Positions 2,580 through 60,392 of a stretch of 64,000 nucleotides of DNA are shown in pieces; position 1 is the stretch's first letter, and the number at the start of each line of letters is the position of its first letter. This DNA is from Escherichia phage ST2. The notes under the pieces are model-generated. The model did no database searches. It was not told the DNA's origin and was given only the letters and a program-made list of their open reading frames with translations. Location of the stretch: the sequence record OM982647; one strand, written 5' to 3'. A program made the translations under genes and the position numbers.

Positions 2580-3541
2580 TGTACTCTTTAGAAGAATTTA
2601 ATAACCAAGCTATAAATGCAGATTTCCAACGAAACAATATGTTTAGTTGTGTATTTGCTACTACACCATCAACCAAATCGTCTTCACTAATTTCGTCAAT
2701 TGGTAGTTTTGCTTATAATAACTTAGGGTTGGATTCTGATTGGCTAGGATTGACTCAAGGTGATATCAATCAGGGCGTAACAACCCTGATTACAGCAGGA
2801 ACACAGAAATTAATTCGAAAATCAGGTATAAGTAAATATCTGATTGGAGCAATGAGTCAACGTACGGTACAAAGCTTGTTAGGTGAGTTCACAGTAGGAG
2901 CTTATCTGATAGACTTCTTCAATATGGCATATAATAATACAGGTTTAATGATTTATTCTGTAAAAATGCCTGAGAACCGATTATCTTATGAAACAGATTT
3001 CAACTATAACTCACCGAACATCCGAATTACCGGTCGTGAAATGGACCCGTTAGTAATAAGCTTTAGAATGGATTCTGAAGCATCTAACTTTAGAGCAATG
3101 CAAGACTGGGTAAACTCAGTCCAAGACCCTGTAACAGGTCTTCGTGCTTTACCACAAGACGTCGAAGCAGATATTCAGGTTAATTTACATGCACGAAATG
3201 GTTTACCACATACCGCTGTCATGTTCACCGGATGTATTCCTGTTAGTGTCTCTTCTCCTGAGTTAACGTATGATGGCGATAATCAGATAACAGTTTTTGA
3301 TGTAACATTTGCTTATCGCGTTATGCAATCAGGTGCTGTAAATAGACAGGCTGCTTTAGAATGGTTGGAATCAGGACTTATTAGTAGTGTTTCAGGAATG
3401 TTTGGAAATAATCAGAATGATTCTGGACTAGGAAGTGCCGTATCAAGACTTTCTAGATTAGGTGGGACTGCTGGAGGTGTGTCTAATATAAACACATTGA
3501 CAGGTGTGGTGAATTCTGCGTCAAGAGTTTTAGGACTATAA
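2579..3541 (+). CDS. 54: Baseplate tail-tube initiator
   Basis: 320 aa as in T4; start overlaps gp48 stop (TAATG); followed by terminator hairpin. Confidence 0.65.
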   Translation: MYSLEEFNNQAINADFQRNNMFSCVFATTPSTKSSSLISSIGSFAYNNLGLDSDWLGLTQGDINQGVTTLITAGTQKLIRKSGISKYLIGAMSQRTVQSLLGEFTVGAYLIDFFNMAYNNTGLMIYSVKMPENRLSYETDFNYNSPNIRITGREMDPLVISFRMDSEASNFRAMQDWVNSVQDPVTGLRALPQDVEADIQVNLHARNGLPHTAVMFTGCIPVSVSSPELTYDGDNQITVFDVTFAYRVMQSGAVNRQAALEWLESGLISSVSGMFGNNQNDSGLGSAVSRLSRLGGTAGGVSNINTLTGVVNSASRVLGL

Positions 3542-3895: not shown

Positions 3896-3930
3896 TGATA
3901 GTATCACACATCCATGTGTTTGTAAACTAT
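3896..3930 (-). promoter_or_regulatory. T4-type early promoter
   Basis: Minus strand GTTTACA, 18-nt spacer, GATACTAT -10. Confidence 0.5.
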
Positions 3931-6014
3931 CCTTGGACAAATTTAAACGGAACTGATTCTAAATCCATTAAAGATGCTAACAATTTCAAACCTTTAGGTG
4001 CACTAGTTTTTTCTACAAATGAGGAGAACGATACCGGCTCATCTGATTCGATTTCACCCGCCATAGCAACCACCTCGCCTGTTTCCATGAGAACATCGCC
4101 GTCGTAAATGACAGCTTCATCCAACTGGTCCGAGGACATGACTTCAGCTTGAATAAATTTAAGGTTGGATTCTAAACCTGCACCGGTGTCAGATGACGCA
4201 TCTGTAATTTTATTTATCTGCAAGAGAATGCCTCTAGGCAAAATAATTTCTTGCTCATTAGGGTGATTACTCAACTGTCCTGGATAAATCACGTTAACTT
4301 TATGGGCGCCATCAATAGCCCATCCAACGTTAACACGGATTTGTTCTGGTGCATGCATAGCTGTTCTTACTTGACTAGGAGAAATGGTAACACCTTCGTC
4401 ATTATTGTCAATGTTAAGCTCTTTGCGAACTTCTTCAGGAGCAAGTCCAAGGGCAACGTTCTCTTTAAACCCGCCGAAAATAATAGGAGCTAGTGAAGTG
4501 GAAACATAGTTTCTGAAGTAGAATACCTTATTTTTAACCATTGCTTCGTAAATAGGCATTCTGATAGACTGAGCTCTATATAACGTTAGTCCTTCAGGTA
4601 AACGGTCTCCATTTAAAAACGCCGAATCAAGACCATCAATAGCGCGTTTAACTTCATCTTCATCCGCAACATCGTAAAAATCTGGTTTATAACGACCTAA
4701 CAACATATTATTGATATCGGTATACGCAGAAGAGGCATATTCACGAATAGCTCGTTTTTCAGCAACAGAGTATTGTTTAGGGTCCCGATTCATTGTTATA
4801 TTAAAGGTGCCTCTAGCCGATTCTCGTGCATAAGTATACATCACATTAGACAAGAACGCTGATTTACGTTGTTTCCAAGTTTTTTCAGATACTTCAGCTA
4901 AAACATCGTCGGCCAGTTGGAAATTATCACGTCTAAAATCTTCAAACCATTCGTCTTTAATAGAGTCTGCAATTTCGTTTGCAGCTTCAACAAAAGCAGC
5001 TAATGCTTTAACAGATGTTGTTTTTTCAGTTTTAATTTTCTTAGCAAACTTTTCTAAAGTTGGCTTAATAACACTACCATAAGAAACTTCATCAGCAAAT
5101 CTAAAGGATTCATCAATACGATTATAAATCTTATTTTCGATATCAGCAACTAAAGTGCCTTTTGCTGTGGATGATGCTTGGGCTAGTACGATTTCATATG
5201 CTTCAGGAAGTAATTCGGCTGTAGCCGGGCCACTAACTTCTTTAGCAGAATTTTCGTATTTCTGGAATAACTCACCTTCTTGGCGGTCAGCTTCTAAAGA
5301 TTGGCTTGCGGCAATAGCGCGCCGAGAAATTTTAGTACGAGCAATAACAGGCTTATCTTTACGTTTTTCTTCTACAGCAGCAATAGAACCAGCGATAGCC
5401 GTTTCTTTGGTGACCTTTTCGCCAGTCTTTTTACTCACATAAACTTCGCCAACATCAGAATCTACTTTCGTGTACAACTCTGTGTTAATGTTAGGGATGC
5501 CTTTAATATCTTCAATGTTGGCATTTTTACGAACCATCATCACATAGGTGTGTTTACCTGTGAATTGATACATTGCCGACAATACTTTAAAACGACCACC
5601 GGTTTTAGTAGAAACTAAACGAGCAAGAAGAGTTTGAAGTTGTTGTCCGCGTCCTTTCAATTTCTTGGTAGGGAATCTGAACAGAACCGCGTCCATACGA
5701 AGAGCTTTAACCTGTTCATATACTGTATTGAAAATGGTGTTGATTGCATCAATAGGAGCAGGACCAAGACCGTTTTTCAATTCAGCGAGATTACCCTTTT
5801 CAGACAGACTCATAATAACGACATGAGCATATTTGTCGCCAAGTTTAACTTGTTTTACAGCATCGCCTTCAGAAAGGTAAGAGAATAAGCGAACTACGAT
5901 GTTTGTATCGATATCACCAATTTTCCAGACTTGTGGAACTTTAGCTTTAGGGTTCAAATTGACGACAGGAAGACTGCCTTCAGATTCAAACACTTCATTT
6001 AATTGTTCAGACAT
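3927..6014 (-). CDS. alt: Alt-like ADP-ribosyltransferase (virion-injected)
   Basis: 695 aa (T4 Alt 682 aa); R-S-EXE motifs LYRAQ / YVSTS / NEQEI; between 54 and 30 as in T4. Confidence 0.75.
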   Translation of the reverse strand: MSEQLNEVFESEGSLPVVNLNPKAKVPQVWKIGDIDTNIVVRLFSYLSEGDAVKQVKLGDKYAHVVIMSLSEKGNLAELKNGLGPAPIDAINTIFNTVYEQVKALRMDAVLFRFPTKKLKGRGQQLQTLLARLVSTKTGGRFKVLSAMYQFTGKHTYVMMVRKNANIEDIKGIPNINTELYTKVDSDVGEVYVSKKTGEKVTKETAIAGSIAAVEEKRKDKPVIARTKISRRAIAASQSLEADRQEGELFQKYENSAKEVSGPATAELLPEAYEIVLAQASSTAKGTLVADIENKIYNRIDESFRFADEVSYGSVIKPTLEKFAKKIKTEKTTSVKALAAFVEAANEIADSIKDEWFEDFRRDNFQLADDVLAEVSEKTWKQRKSAFLSNVMYTYARESARGTFNITMNRDPKQYSVAEKRAIREYASSAYTDINNMLLGRYKPDFYDVADEDEVKRAIDGLDSAFLNGDRLPEGLTLYRAQSIRMPIYEAMVKNKVFYFRNYVSTSLAPIIFGGFKENVALGLAPEEVRKELNIDNNDEGVTISPSQVRTAMHAPEQIRVNVGWAIDGAHKVNVIYPGQLSNHPNEQEIILPRGILLQINKITDASSDTGAGLESNLKFIQAEVMSSDQLDEAVIYDGDVLMETGEVVAMAGEIESDEPVSFSSFVEKTSAPKGLKLLASLMDLESVPFKFVQG

Positions 6015-6070: not shown

Positions 6071-6258
6071 TAATCCACAATCGGGAGCAAAGTACGATAA
6101 ACTTCAAAATTAGGGCCTTTTTCGTACCCATTAACGTTATCTACGAAAACCCGATACGAATTTTCATTAGGAAAATCTAATATAATCTGAGAGCAAGAGG
6201 TGGAAACATCTCCACCATCCTTCTTAGCTACAATAACTGTTTCTAAATAAGCTTTCAT
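6070..6258 (-). CDS. Hypothetical small protein, start coupled to ligase stop
   Basis: ATG at 6258 overlaps gene 30 stop (TAATG); 62 aa. Confidence 0.4.
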   Translation of the reverse strand: MKAYLETVIVAKKDGGDVSTSCSQIILDFPNENSYRVFVDNVNGYEKGPNFEVYRTLLPIVD

Positions 6259-7751
6259 TATAAACCTGTCTGGGACCACGGTCCAAATACGTCTTCAAAT
6301 GAATCCGCTTCTGTTTTATCAAAACGGAACCCTTTAATAATTGGAAGGAAAATACCTACAGTACCTTCACGGCCTTTAGAATGAACCCAACCATTACATT
6401 CACAATCAGCGATACGTCCAATTAATTTACCTTCACGAGCTTCGGTCATTAATCGTTCACGGTCTAAATCATGACGCTCGTCTAAAGGAATAAGAACCTT
6501 TACACCATCAACTGTTTTATGAGTTGTATCTTTAAAACCTGAACCACAATCGGTTGTAATACGACGACAACGTGATACGAGTTCGACACCACCTAATTTG
6601 TTAGGGTCTTTAGAGTGTTCATAGTATCCTACAACTTCTAAAGCGATATCAATAACTTCTTTAAATTTAATTAGATTCTTAGAGCGTTTGTTTTCCCAAT
6701 ATGAATCACGGTTTTTAAGGATAATACCTTCAAGACCTTGGTCAACATATTTTTTATAAACCACTTTAGCTTCGTCAAGATTACGAACTAACTGATTTTC
6801 AATTGGCTCAATTCGCTTAAAGCCTTCAGCCATATTTTCAAGAGCAGCAAAACGAACATCGTATTTCTGACCTTTAATTTTGCCGTCAGAATAGACTTCA
6901 TCTAAAGGAACATAGTCCCAGGCTTGAAGAACCATACCTTCCGCTTCTTTAGGAGAAATAGTCCCTTGAAGAGATTTATTTGCTAAACCGTTTGAAGTGC
7001 TACGGTCTGCAACTTGTACTTCTTCGGATTCTTCATTATCACCAAATAAGAACGACAGGTCATTTCCTGAGCTCACAGCCTTTTTAATATCAAATGAATG
7101 ATAAACTAATTCACCGTCGATTAAAACCCCATTAGGGTGTCTTTCACGAGCTTCTTTAGTCATTTCCATTAGTTCATCTGCTAATAGAGTAAGACCATGG
7201 TATTCATTACCGGCACGAGAAAAGAATTGAACACCATCATCGCGAACTTCAGCGAAACAACGAGCACCATCGGCTTTTAATTGAGCAAATGCAGGCCATT
7301 TAATATTTTTAGTAATCAATTTCTCATCATATGCAGATGCTAACATCTGTGGCTGCAATTGAATAAGACCAGGCCACACCTTATTCGCGATAGACACTGA
7401 AGCACCTACTTCAAGGTCGCGCATCATTACACGACGAAGGACTTCTACATCATCAGGTTTACCATCAGCGATATAACCCATGAGCTCTTTAATTGCAGCA
7501 TTACCAGTGAGTTTACGAGTGGCTAATGTGAACTCAATAAAATCCAACATGTCATCTAATTCAAGAAGACCATACGCTTGAGACCTTTCACCTGGTCCTG
7601 GCCATTTCTTAATATAATACTGGATACCACGTGCATATGTTAAACGATACACACGTTCAAGTAATTTGTTGTCCTTATTTTTCTTAAGGATTTCTTGTTT
7701 TGTTTTAGTAGAACCGATCGCAGCTATTTGGTTTAAAATATCTAAAATCAT
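6258..7751 (-). CDS. 30: ATP-dependent DNA ligase
   Basis: 497 aa; N-terminus MILDILNQIAAIGSTKTKQEILKKNKDN and C-terminus ...FEDVFGPWSQTGL match my recollection of T4 ligase nearly residue for residue. Confidence 0.95.
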   Translation of the reverse strand: MILDILNQIAAIGSTKTKQEILKKNKDNKLLERVYRLTYARGIQYYIKKWPGPGERSQAYGLLELDDMLDFIEFTLATRKLTGNAAIKELMGYIADGKPDDVEVLRRVMMRDLEVGASVSIANKVWPGLIQLQPQMLASAYDEKLITKNIKWPAFAQLKADGARCFAEVRDDGVQFFSRAGNEYHGLTLLADELMEMTKEARERHPNGVLIDGELVYHSFDIKKAVSSGNDLSFLFGDNEESEEVQVADRSTSNGLANKSLQGTISPKEAEGMVLQAWDYVPLDEVYSDGKIKGQKYDVRFAALENMAEGFKRIEPIENQLVRNLDEAKVVYKKYVDQGLEGIILKNRDSYWENKRSKNLIKFKEVIDIALEVVGYYEHSKDPNKLGGVELVSRCRRITTDCGSGFKDTTHKTVDGVKVLIPLDERHDLDRERLMTEAREGKLIGRIADCECNGWVHSKGREGTVGIFLPIIKGFRFDKTEADSFEDVFGPWSQTGL

Positions 7752-57394: not shown

Positions 57395-58141
57395 TTAACC
57401 TTTAATCAGTTGGAATAATGATGCGCTAAGTGGTAAGCCACGTTTCAATTTTAATTTACCAATGAAACCAATCTTTTCAAAACGTTGCAGACCTTGGATA
57501 ACTTTATCATATGTATCGAAAAGCGATTCAGCGTCAGTTAATTTAGTTTTAGTTTTCCAGTCAGAGCCTTTAAGAAGAACGTTGAGTTTAGTAAGTTCAT
57601 GGCCTTCTGCTTGATGTGAGCCATTAATGCGTGCTTTCAAAGCAACAATTCTAAGTTTAGATTCGTTAGATAAAGGTTGATTTTTCATCATGTTTGCCAT
57701 ATGCTTAACACGATTTTCACGTTTTGCTCGGATTTTTAAAATAGTACCATAAACCTTTTTAATTTGGGCCCATTTCTTCTCGTCGAGATTAAGTTTCTCT
57801 ACTTTACGGGCAGAAGGATTAGCGATACGTCTTGCAACGGCATCACGTTTCTCAATAAGTTCTTCTAATGTTAAATCAGAACGAGCCGTGTTATATTTTT
57901 TCTTAACTGGGATGACATTACCTTTAATGTAGCCTATATCATTATTAAAACGTTCTAAGGATAATTTCTCACCTTCAACAGAGTTATTAAAAGATTCACC
58001 TGAGTAAGCGCAGACCTTTTGATCAAGAATGTTTTTAAGGTAATTAAAGTCTAAGTTAAAATCCTTAGAGCGTCTCTTCGCAGAAGCTCTGGTGTGATCA
58101 AGACGACGATTAATTTTGTTAATTTTATTATTTGATAACAT
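57395..58141 (-). CDS. Highly basic protein, possibly Srd-like
   Basis: 248 aa, K/R-rich; position between dda and mod genes as T4 srd. Confidence 0.35.
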   Translation of the reverse strand: MLSNNKINKINRRLDHTRASAKRRSKDFNLDFNYLKNILDQKVCAYSGESFNNSVEGEKLSLERFNNDIGYIKGNVIPVKKKYNTARSDLTLEELIEKRDAVARRIANPSARKVEKLNLDEKKWAQIKKVYGTILKIRAKRENRVKHMANMMKNQPLSNESKLRIVALKARINGSHQAEGHELTKLNVLLKGSDWKTKTKLTDAESLFDTYDKVIQGLQRFEKIGFIGKLKLKRGLPLSASLFQLIKG

Positions 58142-58294
58142 AATATTTTCCTCTGTCTTACGGACGTTAAGGTCATTTAGCTGATAAGCTTATAATATCA
58201 TGCCCTCAGGTAGTGTACACTCTTTTTTCATAAAATGCTTTAATTTTTTATGTGTTATAATGGTTCTGAGTTCCATCCGGTTATTCCAATTCAG

Positions 58295-58903
58295 TCAGTA
58301 ACTGACAATAGTCAGATTCCAGATTGTATAACGTCCATCTTGAATAATAGAATCTACACGCAGTGTAGTCCCTATAGGGAGCATAAATTCACATTCGTCA
58401 GATATAAGTCTAGCATTAGACCGTCTTGTCGCTTCAGGGAAAGCTCCATTGAACTCACAAGATGGCGCAGCCAGAATCATGTTAAGCATATGTTCACGGA
58501 AGTTGAAAGCAAATGGTGCATCTTTGATGCAGAACATATTAAATGTTCCGTAAAAATTATACGAAGCAAAGTTACGTGCTACACCGAACACTGGGCTGAA
58601 GCTCATTACTCTGTCAAATTTAATAATACTACCAATGCCTTTATCATCGAGTGTGGCCATAGTTTTCTTAGAGATTCCACGATACATTGTCTCAGGAACA
58701 GAAGACGACCAATTTCTACGAACAATTGCACTTAAATCTTGTTGGATGCTATCGGGCTTGTTTTCCATACACTGCCATAGTACACTTTGTTCAATGTCGC
58801 TGAATTGCTCATCGATTTTGTACTGAAGCATATCTTGATAATCCGGGCATTGAGCACGACGAACCATTTCCTCAATTTCACATTCATTATACGGCATAAA
58901 CAT
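58295..58903 (-). CDS. ModA/ModB-like ADP-ribosyltransferase, paralog 1
   Basis: 202 aa; R-S-EXE-like motifs MYRG / SFSPVFG / SDECEF; SD GGAG. Confidence 0.6.
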   Translation of the reverse strand: MFMPYNECEIEEMVRRAQCPDYQDMLQYKIDEQFSDIEQSVLWQCMENKPDSIQQDLSAIVRRNWSSSVPETMYRGISKKTMATLDDKGIGSIIKFDRVMSFSPVFGVARNFASYNFYGTFNMFCIKDAPFAFNFREHMLNMILAAPSCEFNGAFPEATRRSNARLISDECEFMLPIGTTLRVDSIIQDGRYTIWNLTIVSY

Positions 58904-58960
58904 TTATGTTTCTCCTGTGGTTGATAAAGATATAGTATCATCATCGGAAGAGTTTGTACA

Positions 58961-59542
58961 CTAAAAATTCAACATTTTCAAATGAATGATTTTGTATAAT
59001 CGAGATAAAGGGTCATATTCTAAGTCTTCAATTTCCACAATCTCAAATCTAGAGATACCTGAGACCATGTACTCTTGTTCAGATTCAATCATATCTAGGA
59101 CGTCAACACGCTTTTCTTCCATAACATGCTTAGGGTTCTTTCCGGCGAGTACAATGTTAACCATGTTTTGGTAGTAATCAAAAATGAATGGAGCATTCCT
59201 GAGACTAAGAATAGTGTACGTCTGATATTCCCATATCCCGGAGAATTGACGAGCTGTACTGAAATCAGTTGTGAACGATGTTACTCGTCCAGGAGACCAA
59301 TGGCATCCAACAGAAAGAAGGGAAAGACGTTCTGCTTCTTCTGGAGTTACACCACGGTAGAGTTCTACTGGTACTGTAGAAGTCATATGCTTACGAACAA
59401 GATGGTCTAATTCATAGTGGAAATCCGGGTCTTCCTTAGAATCGGTGCAAGCCCAGAGAATGTTTTGTTCTTGGCGGGTGAATTTGCTATCAATCAGATT
59501 TGTTAGGTATTCACGTTCTTGAAGTTCAGATTGACATGTCAT
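58961..59542 (-). CDS. ModA/ModB-like ADP-ribosyltransferase, paralog 2
   Basis: 193 aa; LYRG / SFTTDFS / ESEQEY; SD GGAGG. Confidence 0.6.
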   Translation of the reverse strand: MTCQSELQEREYLTNLIDSKFTRQEQNILWACTDSKEDPDFHYELDHLVRKHMTSTVPVELYRGVTPEEAERLSLLSVGCHWSPGRVTSFTTDFSTARQFSGIWEYQTYTILSLRNAPFIFDYYQNMVNIVLAGKNPKHVMEEKRVDVLDMIESEQEYMVSGISRFEIVEIEDLEYDPLSRLYKIIHLKMLNF

Positions 59543-59746
59543 GATAGACCTCCATTTAAAGATAAGCCTATCATAACACGAGAGGAGGGAATGTAAACTA
59601 CTTTTTAAGCTTTCCTACTAAAGGTCCATCAGGACCAGGTTGTTCTAACATGAATAAGGATGCTTTAAAAAGCAATGTCAACCCTTTCACCATTCGATAC
59701 CATGTCTCAAAGTCTTTTTCCTTGATTTCTAGTAAGAATTTCTCTT

Positions 59747-59935
59747 TCATTTCCAAGGACTCCATGGTGGTGGGTCGTCATAATAAGAGGCAAGGTCTTT
59801 CAGGGCTTCGACAGGTAAACTAAAGCCGTGTCGTTGTATAATACTATCTAGTTCATCAACAAGTTCACTACGATGCACTTTAGGAGCCTTGACTTCAGGC
59901 TCATCAAACATACTCATCAAGTCCATATTATTCAC
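59747..59935 (-). CDS. Hypothetical protein
   Basis: 62-aa ORF. Confidence 0.4.
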   Translation of the reverse strand: MNNMDLMSMFDEPEVKAPKVHRSELVDELDSIIQRHGFSLPVEALKDLASYYDDPPPWSPWK

Positions 59936-60392
59936 CGAGATAAAAACTAGCAGGTTCAGAGAACGTTTCTAGTGCTACACCTTTTGTCTTAAAAAATTTC
60001 CAAATAGCTCGTTGCAAATGGATTAAATCTGCTAATGATGTAATAAAGTATTTTTTGGCAAAATACTTGTGGTCTCGCTTTTCAAACAAGTCTAAACGCT
60101 TTTCAGGATTCACATAAACGGCATTTTCCGTAGATTCATAACCTAAGTCCTTTATGCCTTCTTCAAGACTAAACGGAGAATTTTTAGAACGAGTAATAGC
60201 TCCAACTCGCTCTACACGAATTTTGTAACCTTTAGGAATCTGTAATTTGCAGAATTCTTCTACGATATATTGCGGATTATTTAGACTTTTGTTAATGAGA
60301 ATAGCTATTTCTAGTGGAGTCTTATCTTCCACTGGTATATGTTTAAATGACTTGGCTTCAAGCAAATACATTTTAAATAGCATAGCATCCAT
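59928..60392 (-). CDS. Hypothetical protein
   Basis: 154-aa ORF. Confidence 0.45.
   Translation of the reverse strand: MDAMLFKMYLLEAKSFKHIPVEDKTPLEIAILINKSLNNPQYIVEEFCKLQIPKGYKIRVERVGAITRSKNSPFSLEEGIKDLGYESTENAVYVNPEKRLDLFEKRDHKYFAKKYFITSLADLIHLQRAIWKFFKTKGVALETFSEPASFYLGE

Follow-up and report, generated by a model that had tools for sequence, protein, structure and literature searches.

The adjacent minus-strand genes at positions 58295–58903 and 58961–59542 of the window (the 64,000-nucleotide stretch of Escherichia phage ST2 DNA, record OM982647, that was analysed) are modA and modB of an RB69-like Mosigvirus, both annotated before, and represent a rediscovery rather than a new pair. With a probability of about 0.9, they encode early R-S-EXE arginine-specific mono-ADP-ribosyltransferases whose host targets would follow from orthology to the T4 enzymes. 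The assignment draws on gene structure, homology, conservation of catalytic residues, the ADP-ribosyltransferase (ART) fold, synteny and orthology. A preliminary description of this DNA had proposed an adjacent pair of ModA/ModB-like R-S-EXE enzymes at the same coordinates, and this reading is supported by the catalytic residues, the predicted ART fold, the synteny and the RB69 annotation.

The same two genes are present in RB69 (GenBank AY303349 / NC_004928). The RB69 ModA (AAP75920) and ModB (AAP75921) proteins share 99% and about 98% identity, respectively, with the 202- and 193-residue window proteins, and the 3.2-kb region around the pair is 97.6% identical to RB69 at the DNA level, with the same coordinates relative to srd and dda. 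The differences are limited to a handful of substitutions and to the modA start, which is annotated in RB69 two codons downstream at the second ATG (58897) and yields a protein of 200 instead of 202 residues. In the RB69 record, modA is labelled ‘ADP-ribosylates both alpha subunits of RNA polymerase’, and modB is labelled ‘ADP ribosylates ribosomal protein S1, EF-Tu, trigger factor’. The 3.2-kb region exhibits 97–98% identity to RB69 and about 150 other Mosigvirus genomes (164 matching records, 152 of them with at least 80% query coverage), and both proteins occur at 90% identity or higher in well over 100 Mosigvirus genomes. Homologues of the two proteins were found in 1,080 and 1,060 phage records. 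Within Mosigvirus, the modA orthologue varies more than the modB orthologue at the protein level: 66 records of the former fall at 90–95% identity and 70 at 95–99%, compared with only 1 and 134 records of the latter.

The neighbouring genes are arranged in the T4 order and comprise those for the Dda helicase, dda.1 (Phage_Y01A), Srd, the two Mod proteins, modA.2, an MRH-family protein, Soc and gp56. The mod genes lie between modA.2/mrh and srd-dda.1-dda in the early region, in agreement with the modB-modA-srd-dda.1-dda order of T4, and the locus was compared in 12 further phages from which it was retrieved. The srd gene (57395–58141, minus strand) matches PHROG 1400 ‘Srd anti-sigma factor’ (E = 2e-99). 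Srd also has stretches within residues 4–157, in its N-terminal ∼150 residues, with matches to the HNH endonuclease and endonuclease VII families of phages (E = 4e-18 to 4e-11), which suggests that it contains a nuclease-like domain or is derived from one. The modA.2 homologue (59747–59935, minus strand; PHROG 1647) is called ‘molybdenum ABC transporter, periplasmic molybdenum-binding protein’ in several GenBank phage records, and this label looks like an annotation error that spread through confusion with the bacterial gene name modA. The MRH-family gene (59928–60392, minus strand) forms one intact 154-residue ORF (Pfam T4_MRH, 7e-38). In RB69 (AY303349, 5141–5606), one extra A in an A-run (ACAAAAATT vs ACAAAATT) breaks the gene into ‘RB69ORF022c’ and a short ‘mrh’, which is due either to a frameshift or to mis-sequencing of the reference.

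Both ORFs are assigned by full-length sequence similarity to T4 ModA and ModB to the T4-type Mod family (PHROG 832; Pfam tag PF26816). BLASTP comparisons of T4 ModA and ModB with the window proteins gave E values of 1e-9 to 1e-34, far past chance, and the PHROG 832 profile ‘RNA polymerase ADP-ribosylase’ matched the two proteins at 4e-38 and 1e-37. Pfam-A and NCBIfam scans returned no family for either window protein. These missing matches reflect a gap in the libraries and are not counter-evidence, because NCBIfam finds nothing for T4 ModA and ModB either and the scanned Pfam-A set lacked PF26816. The two proteins were described at the outset as considerably diverged paralogues, and this is accurate, with 31% identity over 147 residues (E = 6e-25). 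No further Mod-type ORF was found across the window. A plus-strand ORF of 161 codons (58250–58735), antisense to modA, was set aside; it lies entirely within or against a well-supported gene, and the Mod profile gave nothing for it. The window also contains an Alt-like ADP-ribosyltransferase gene (695 residues; 3927–6014, minus strand; PHROG 802, E = 1.8e-261; Pfam ADPrib_exo_Tox, 6e-28), which adjoins a DNA ligase gene (6258–7751, minus strand). As Alt, ModA and ModB are all present, the window encodes all three T4-type ARTs.

Table 1. Features of the mod gene pair, with positions in the window.
Feature	Position	Strand	Length	Details
modA orthologue (srd-proximal mod gene)	58295..58903	−	202 aa	R-S-EXE mono-ADP-ribosyltransferase (predicted)
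modB orthologue (srd-distal mod gene)	58961..59542	−	193 aa	R-S-EXE mono-ADP-ribosyltransferase (predicted)
T4-early-type promoter (predicted), 193-aa gene	59570..59597	−		(G)TTTACA-16-TATGAT with TG, preceded by an A-rich stretch; 10/12 in scan
Shine-Dalgarno GGAGG, 193-aa gene	59549..59553	−		6 nt before ATG
Weaker promoter-like site, 202-aa gene	58932..58960	−		TGTACA-17-TGnTACTAT; 8/12, below scan threshold
Shine-Dalgarno AGGAG, 202-aa gene	58912..58916	−		6–8 nt before ATG
Arg63 codon (YRG), 193-aa enzyme	59354..59356	−		Aligns with T4 ModB R73; invariant 20/20
Ser89 codon (S-F-T, S89-F-T91), 193-aa enzyme	59276..59278	−		Invariant Ser column 20/20
E155-Q-E157 codons (E-x-E), 193-aa enzyme	59072..59080	−		Aligns with T4 ModB E171/E173 and T4 ModA E163/E165
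Arg75 codon (YRG), 202-aa enzyme	58679..58681	−		Aligns with T4 ModA R72 and T4 ModB R73
Ser101 codon (S-F-S, S101-F-S103), 202-aa enzyme	58601..58603	−		Invariant Ser column
E170-C-E172 codons (E-x-E), 202-aa enzyme	58388..58396	−		E172 aligns with T4 ModA E165

The catalytic motifs quoted in the preliminary description are present in the correct order, as MYRG, VMSFS and SDECEF in the 202-residue protein and as LYRG, VTSFT and ESEQEY in the 193-residue protein. Its ‘S-rich’ element does correspond to a serine motif, but this is actually a short S-F-S/T motif. Twenty Mod proteins representing 14 genera of T4-like phages were aligned, and all 20 sequences share the YRG Arg and Gly residues, the first Ser residue of S-F-S/T and both Glu residues of E-x-E without exception. 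The R75, S101, E170 and E172 residues of the 202-residue protein are equivalent to R72, S96, E163 and E165 of T4 ModA, and the R63, S89, E155 and E157 residues of the 193-residue protein are equivalent to R73, S99, E171 and E173 of T4 ModB. The catalytic Glu pair, the loss of which the preliminary description had named as a refutation, is thus kept in both proteins on alignment to T4 ModA and ModB. In T4, the R73A/G74A double substitution renders ModB catalytically inactive and lowers burst size (PMC10468400), and the E165A mutation abolishes ADP-ribosylation by ModA (PMC11404850).

The predicted structures of both window proteins adopt the R-S-E ADP-ribosyltransferase fold and are confident full-length ART models. 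The R75 and R63 residues are located at the end of the first core strand (residues 72–76 and 60–64, respectively). A profile search aligned YRG with the YRG motif of Vis, and E-x-E with XopAI and Vis, although as weak matches (E values of 0.1–0.8). A sequence search of PDB chains gave nothing meaningful for the window proteins, and no solved Mod structure, including a ModB crystal structure, was found. Collectively, the alignment and the models show a complete R-S-EXE set of the arginine-specific class in both enzymes, consisting of the ART fold, the β1 Arg residue, S-x-S/T and E-x-E.

The window proteins differ from their T4 counterparts outside these motifs. The 202-residue protein occupies the same srd-adjacent place as T4 ModA (NP_049635, the ADP-ribosyltransferase of RNA polymerase alpha Arg265) and has the same size, but the two are only 31–35% identical. 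The 193-residue gene shares with T4 modB its position downstream of modA.2 and a conserved predicted early promoter. The encoded protein is 32–38% identical to T4 ModB (NP_049636, which ADP-ribosylates and RNAylates rS1, rL2, EF-Tu and trigger factor) but is 14 residues shorter, lacking most of the N-terminal extension of T4 ModB and an insert of about 8 residues ahead of E-x-E. Bacterial R-S-E ART toxins and effectors (Tre1 6drh_B, Vis 4xzj, VIP2 1qs1, C3 1ojz and HopU1 3u0j) and T4 Alt are more distant, with 10–21% identity. Unlike these proteins, the Mod proteins have at their N-terminus a phage-specific helical bundle about 60 residues long. They also lack secretion or packaging domains, whereas Alt is a 695-residue virion-packaged protein.

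The expression signals of the two genes are of unequal strength. Upstream of the 193-residue gene, the GTTTAC −35 element, which is the T4 early −35 consensus (PMC1524935), and the −10 element are found at the same position in RB69, WG01, VR7 and T4, which represent four genera. The weaker site of the 202-residue gene is located in a 57-nucleotide gap between the genes. It is common to RB69 and, in the form GTTTAC...TGgTACTAT, to Dhakavirus WG01, and inspection by eye revealed no such element in the VR7 mod gap. T4 lacks the gap, its modB and modA genes overlapping by ATGA, and T4 modA has no promoter of its own. As a whole, the region is not enriched in promoter-like matches over shuffled sequences (10 vs 10.6), and the promoter claim therefore rests on position and conservation. 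Of the two promoters initially suggested, one for each gene, the predicted early (sigma-70, T4-type) promoter of modB has good support (10/12, conserved position), and a separate promoter predicted for the 202-residue gene is only plausible, given the weak evidence (8/12). Each gene does have its own Shine-Dalgarno sequence, as had been proposed.

In T4, RNA polymerase ADP-ribosylation is started by injected Alt and completed by ModA, which is made early and modifies Arg265 on both alpha subunits, thereby blocking UP-element and activator contacts (PMC2988021, PMC3014915, PMC10468400). Specific Arg265 modification of both alpha subunits is known for T4 ModA only (PMC2988021). The substrates of T4 ModB are S1, EF-Tu, trigger factor and L2, and the enzyme can couple NAD-capped RNAs to S1 and L2 (PMC2988021, PMC3014915, PMC10468400); the use of NAD-capped RNA as a donor (RNAylation of rS1/rL2) has been shown for T4 ModB only (PMC10468400). 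No assays on RB69-type Mod enzymes were found in the literature searched.

By analogy with T4, the enzymatic activity, targets, RNAylation and expression timing of the window enzymes can be outlined as follows. The two proteins would be roughly 200-residue, single-domain, early-expressed enzymes that bind NAD+ in a cholera-toxin-like ART fold through the YRG Arg residue and the S-F-S/T motif. The second Glu residue of E-x-E would serve as the catalytic residue, and ADP-ribose would be transferred to arginines of host proteins soon after infection. The srd-proximal enzyme (ModA) would modify Arg265 of both RNA polymerase alpha subunits, finishing the work of injected Alt. The distal enzyme (ModB) would modify S1, EF-Tu, trigger factor and L2 and may also couple NAD-capped RNAs to those translation proteins. 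From the T4 enzymes, we infer different targets for the two proteins, as the preliminary description had suggested, and T4-like targets are likely for RB69-type enzymes.

The targets may differ from those in T4, because identity to the T4 enzymes is only 23–38%. An unlikely yet credible reading is that the window proteins are true ModA and ModB orthologues whose target range or co-substrate use has shifted; for example, the 193-residue enzyme may not RNAylate, or the 202-residue enzyme may hit proteins besides RNA polymerase alpha. Such a shift would be consistent with the low identity to the T4 enzymes (23–35% across the trimmed alignment of 20 sequences, reaching 38% in local BLASTP alignments) and with the differences beyond the catalytic core, notably in the segment preceding E-x-E, where the T4 ModB insert is longer. 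Moreover, the basis of RNAylation by ModB, and not by ModA, is not understood (PMC10468400). On the other hand, the pair has the same early regulation and synteny in genera with a common host, which speaks for conserved roles. A rather doubtful and tentative extension is that the division of labour has shifted relative to T4 ModA and ModB, in host targets or in the use of NAD-capped RNA, and that modA may have gained its own promoter in this lineage. If true, this would provide a natural comparison pair for mapping RNAylation determinants.

The number of mod genes varies among T4-like genera. Two mod genes are found in Tequatro-, Mosig-, Dhaka- and Gaprivervirus, and one is found in Gelderland-, Winkler-, Marfa-, Jiaoda-, Karam-, Moon-, Mosuguk-, Kagamiyama- and Krischvirus. 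The single-copy Mod proteins (for example, those of Salmonella phage STP4-a, Citrobacter phage Merlin and Serratia phage X20) are encoded at the same locus with the same catalytic motifs and, among the other genera compared, are closest to both window proteins (41–45% identity). They represent an unduplicated, ancestral-like state. In the T2 record AP018813, modA is intact, but modB occupies two ORFs, one of 142 residues covering the N-terminal part (2911–3339) and one of 42 residues covering the C-terminal part with E-x-E (3404–3532). The N-terminal ORF leaves the frame after ‘NYSDH’, and T2 ModB is either disrupted or mis-sequenced in this record.

Raw similarity does not discriminate between the two T4 enzymes in the expected manner. 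T4 ModB outscores T4 ModA for both window proteins in BLASTP (109 vs 72 bits and 91 vs 42 bits), and both window proteins are nearer to the single-copy Mod proteins than to either T4 protein. A 20-taxon bootstrapped neighbour-joining (NJ) tree resolved only two clades, an srd-proximal clade with the Mosig-, Dhaka- and Gaprivervirus copies (97%) and a distal clade with the Mosig- and Dhakavirus copies (99%), and its deep nodes received 3–44% support. The homologue searches, including one with a 17-sequence profile, gave 12, 16 and 21 matches, all carrying PF26816, which was enough to predict structures but too few to build a dense phylogeny. These scores and the unresolved deep nodes would fit a pair that duplicated independently of T4 ModA and ModB, in which case the names would be positional only and the RNA polymerase specificity of T4 ModA need not apply. 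Because its deep nodes are unresolved, the NJ tree was dropped as evidence of orthology, and signature-residue, HMM and four-cluster tests were used instead.

These tests leave an independent duplication very improbable. In the signature test, T4 ModA shares 21 exclusive residues with the proximal clade and 7 with the distal clade, a threefold difference. T4 ModA scores 95 bits with the proximal-clade HMM and 31 bits with the distal-clade HMM, whereas an ancestral-like single-copy protein scores about equally with the two (187 vs 179 bits). The four-cluster bootstrap grouped ModA with the proximal clade and ModB with the distal clade in 1866 of 2000 replicates (93%); independent duplication was recovered in 74 replicates and the swapped assignment in 60. 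The relative gene order is also identical in the four genera. T4 ModA forms a long branch (mean distance of 1.79, compared with about 1.35 for the others), which accounts for the low raw scores against it, and the interpretation of both window proteins as ModB-like was rejected as an effect of this branch.

The srd-adjacent position, the four-cluster bootstrap, the exclusive residues and the HMM scores support the 202-residue protein as the orthologue of T4 ModA. For T4 ModB, neither the signature test (17 vs 14 residues) nor the HMMs (90 vs 121 bits) point specifically to the distal clade, and the putative assignment of the 193-residue protein as the ModB orthologue for this reason rests on position, quartet topology and elimination. 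Overall, a single duplication that predated the split of the four two-copy genera, followed by fast evolution of T4 ModA, would explain the data. Finally, a catalytically dead pseudo-enzyme or decaying gene is extremely improbable for either copy: loss occurs in the family, as in the split modB of T2, but neither window ORF is interrupted, each encodes the full catalytic set, both yield confident full-length ART models, and both are retained at high identity throughout the Mosigvirus genomes noted above.

The gene pair carries little weight as a discovery: its annotation in RB69 dates from 2003, and over 1,000 genomes of T4-like phages carry these genes. The gain lies in the confirmation of a motif-based call, in stronger support for modA and modB as positional names in Mosigvirus, and in the observation that several T4-like genera have one mod gene and four have two. 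Why ModB but not ModA RNAylates is a question left open by the 2023 Nature paper (PMC10468400), and the RB69-type ModB, which is about 35% identical to T4 ModB, could be a natural variant for probing it.
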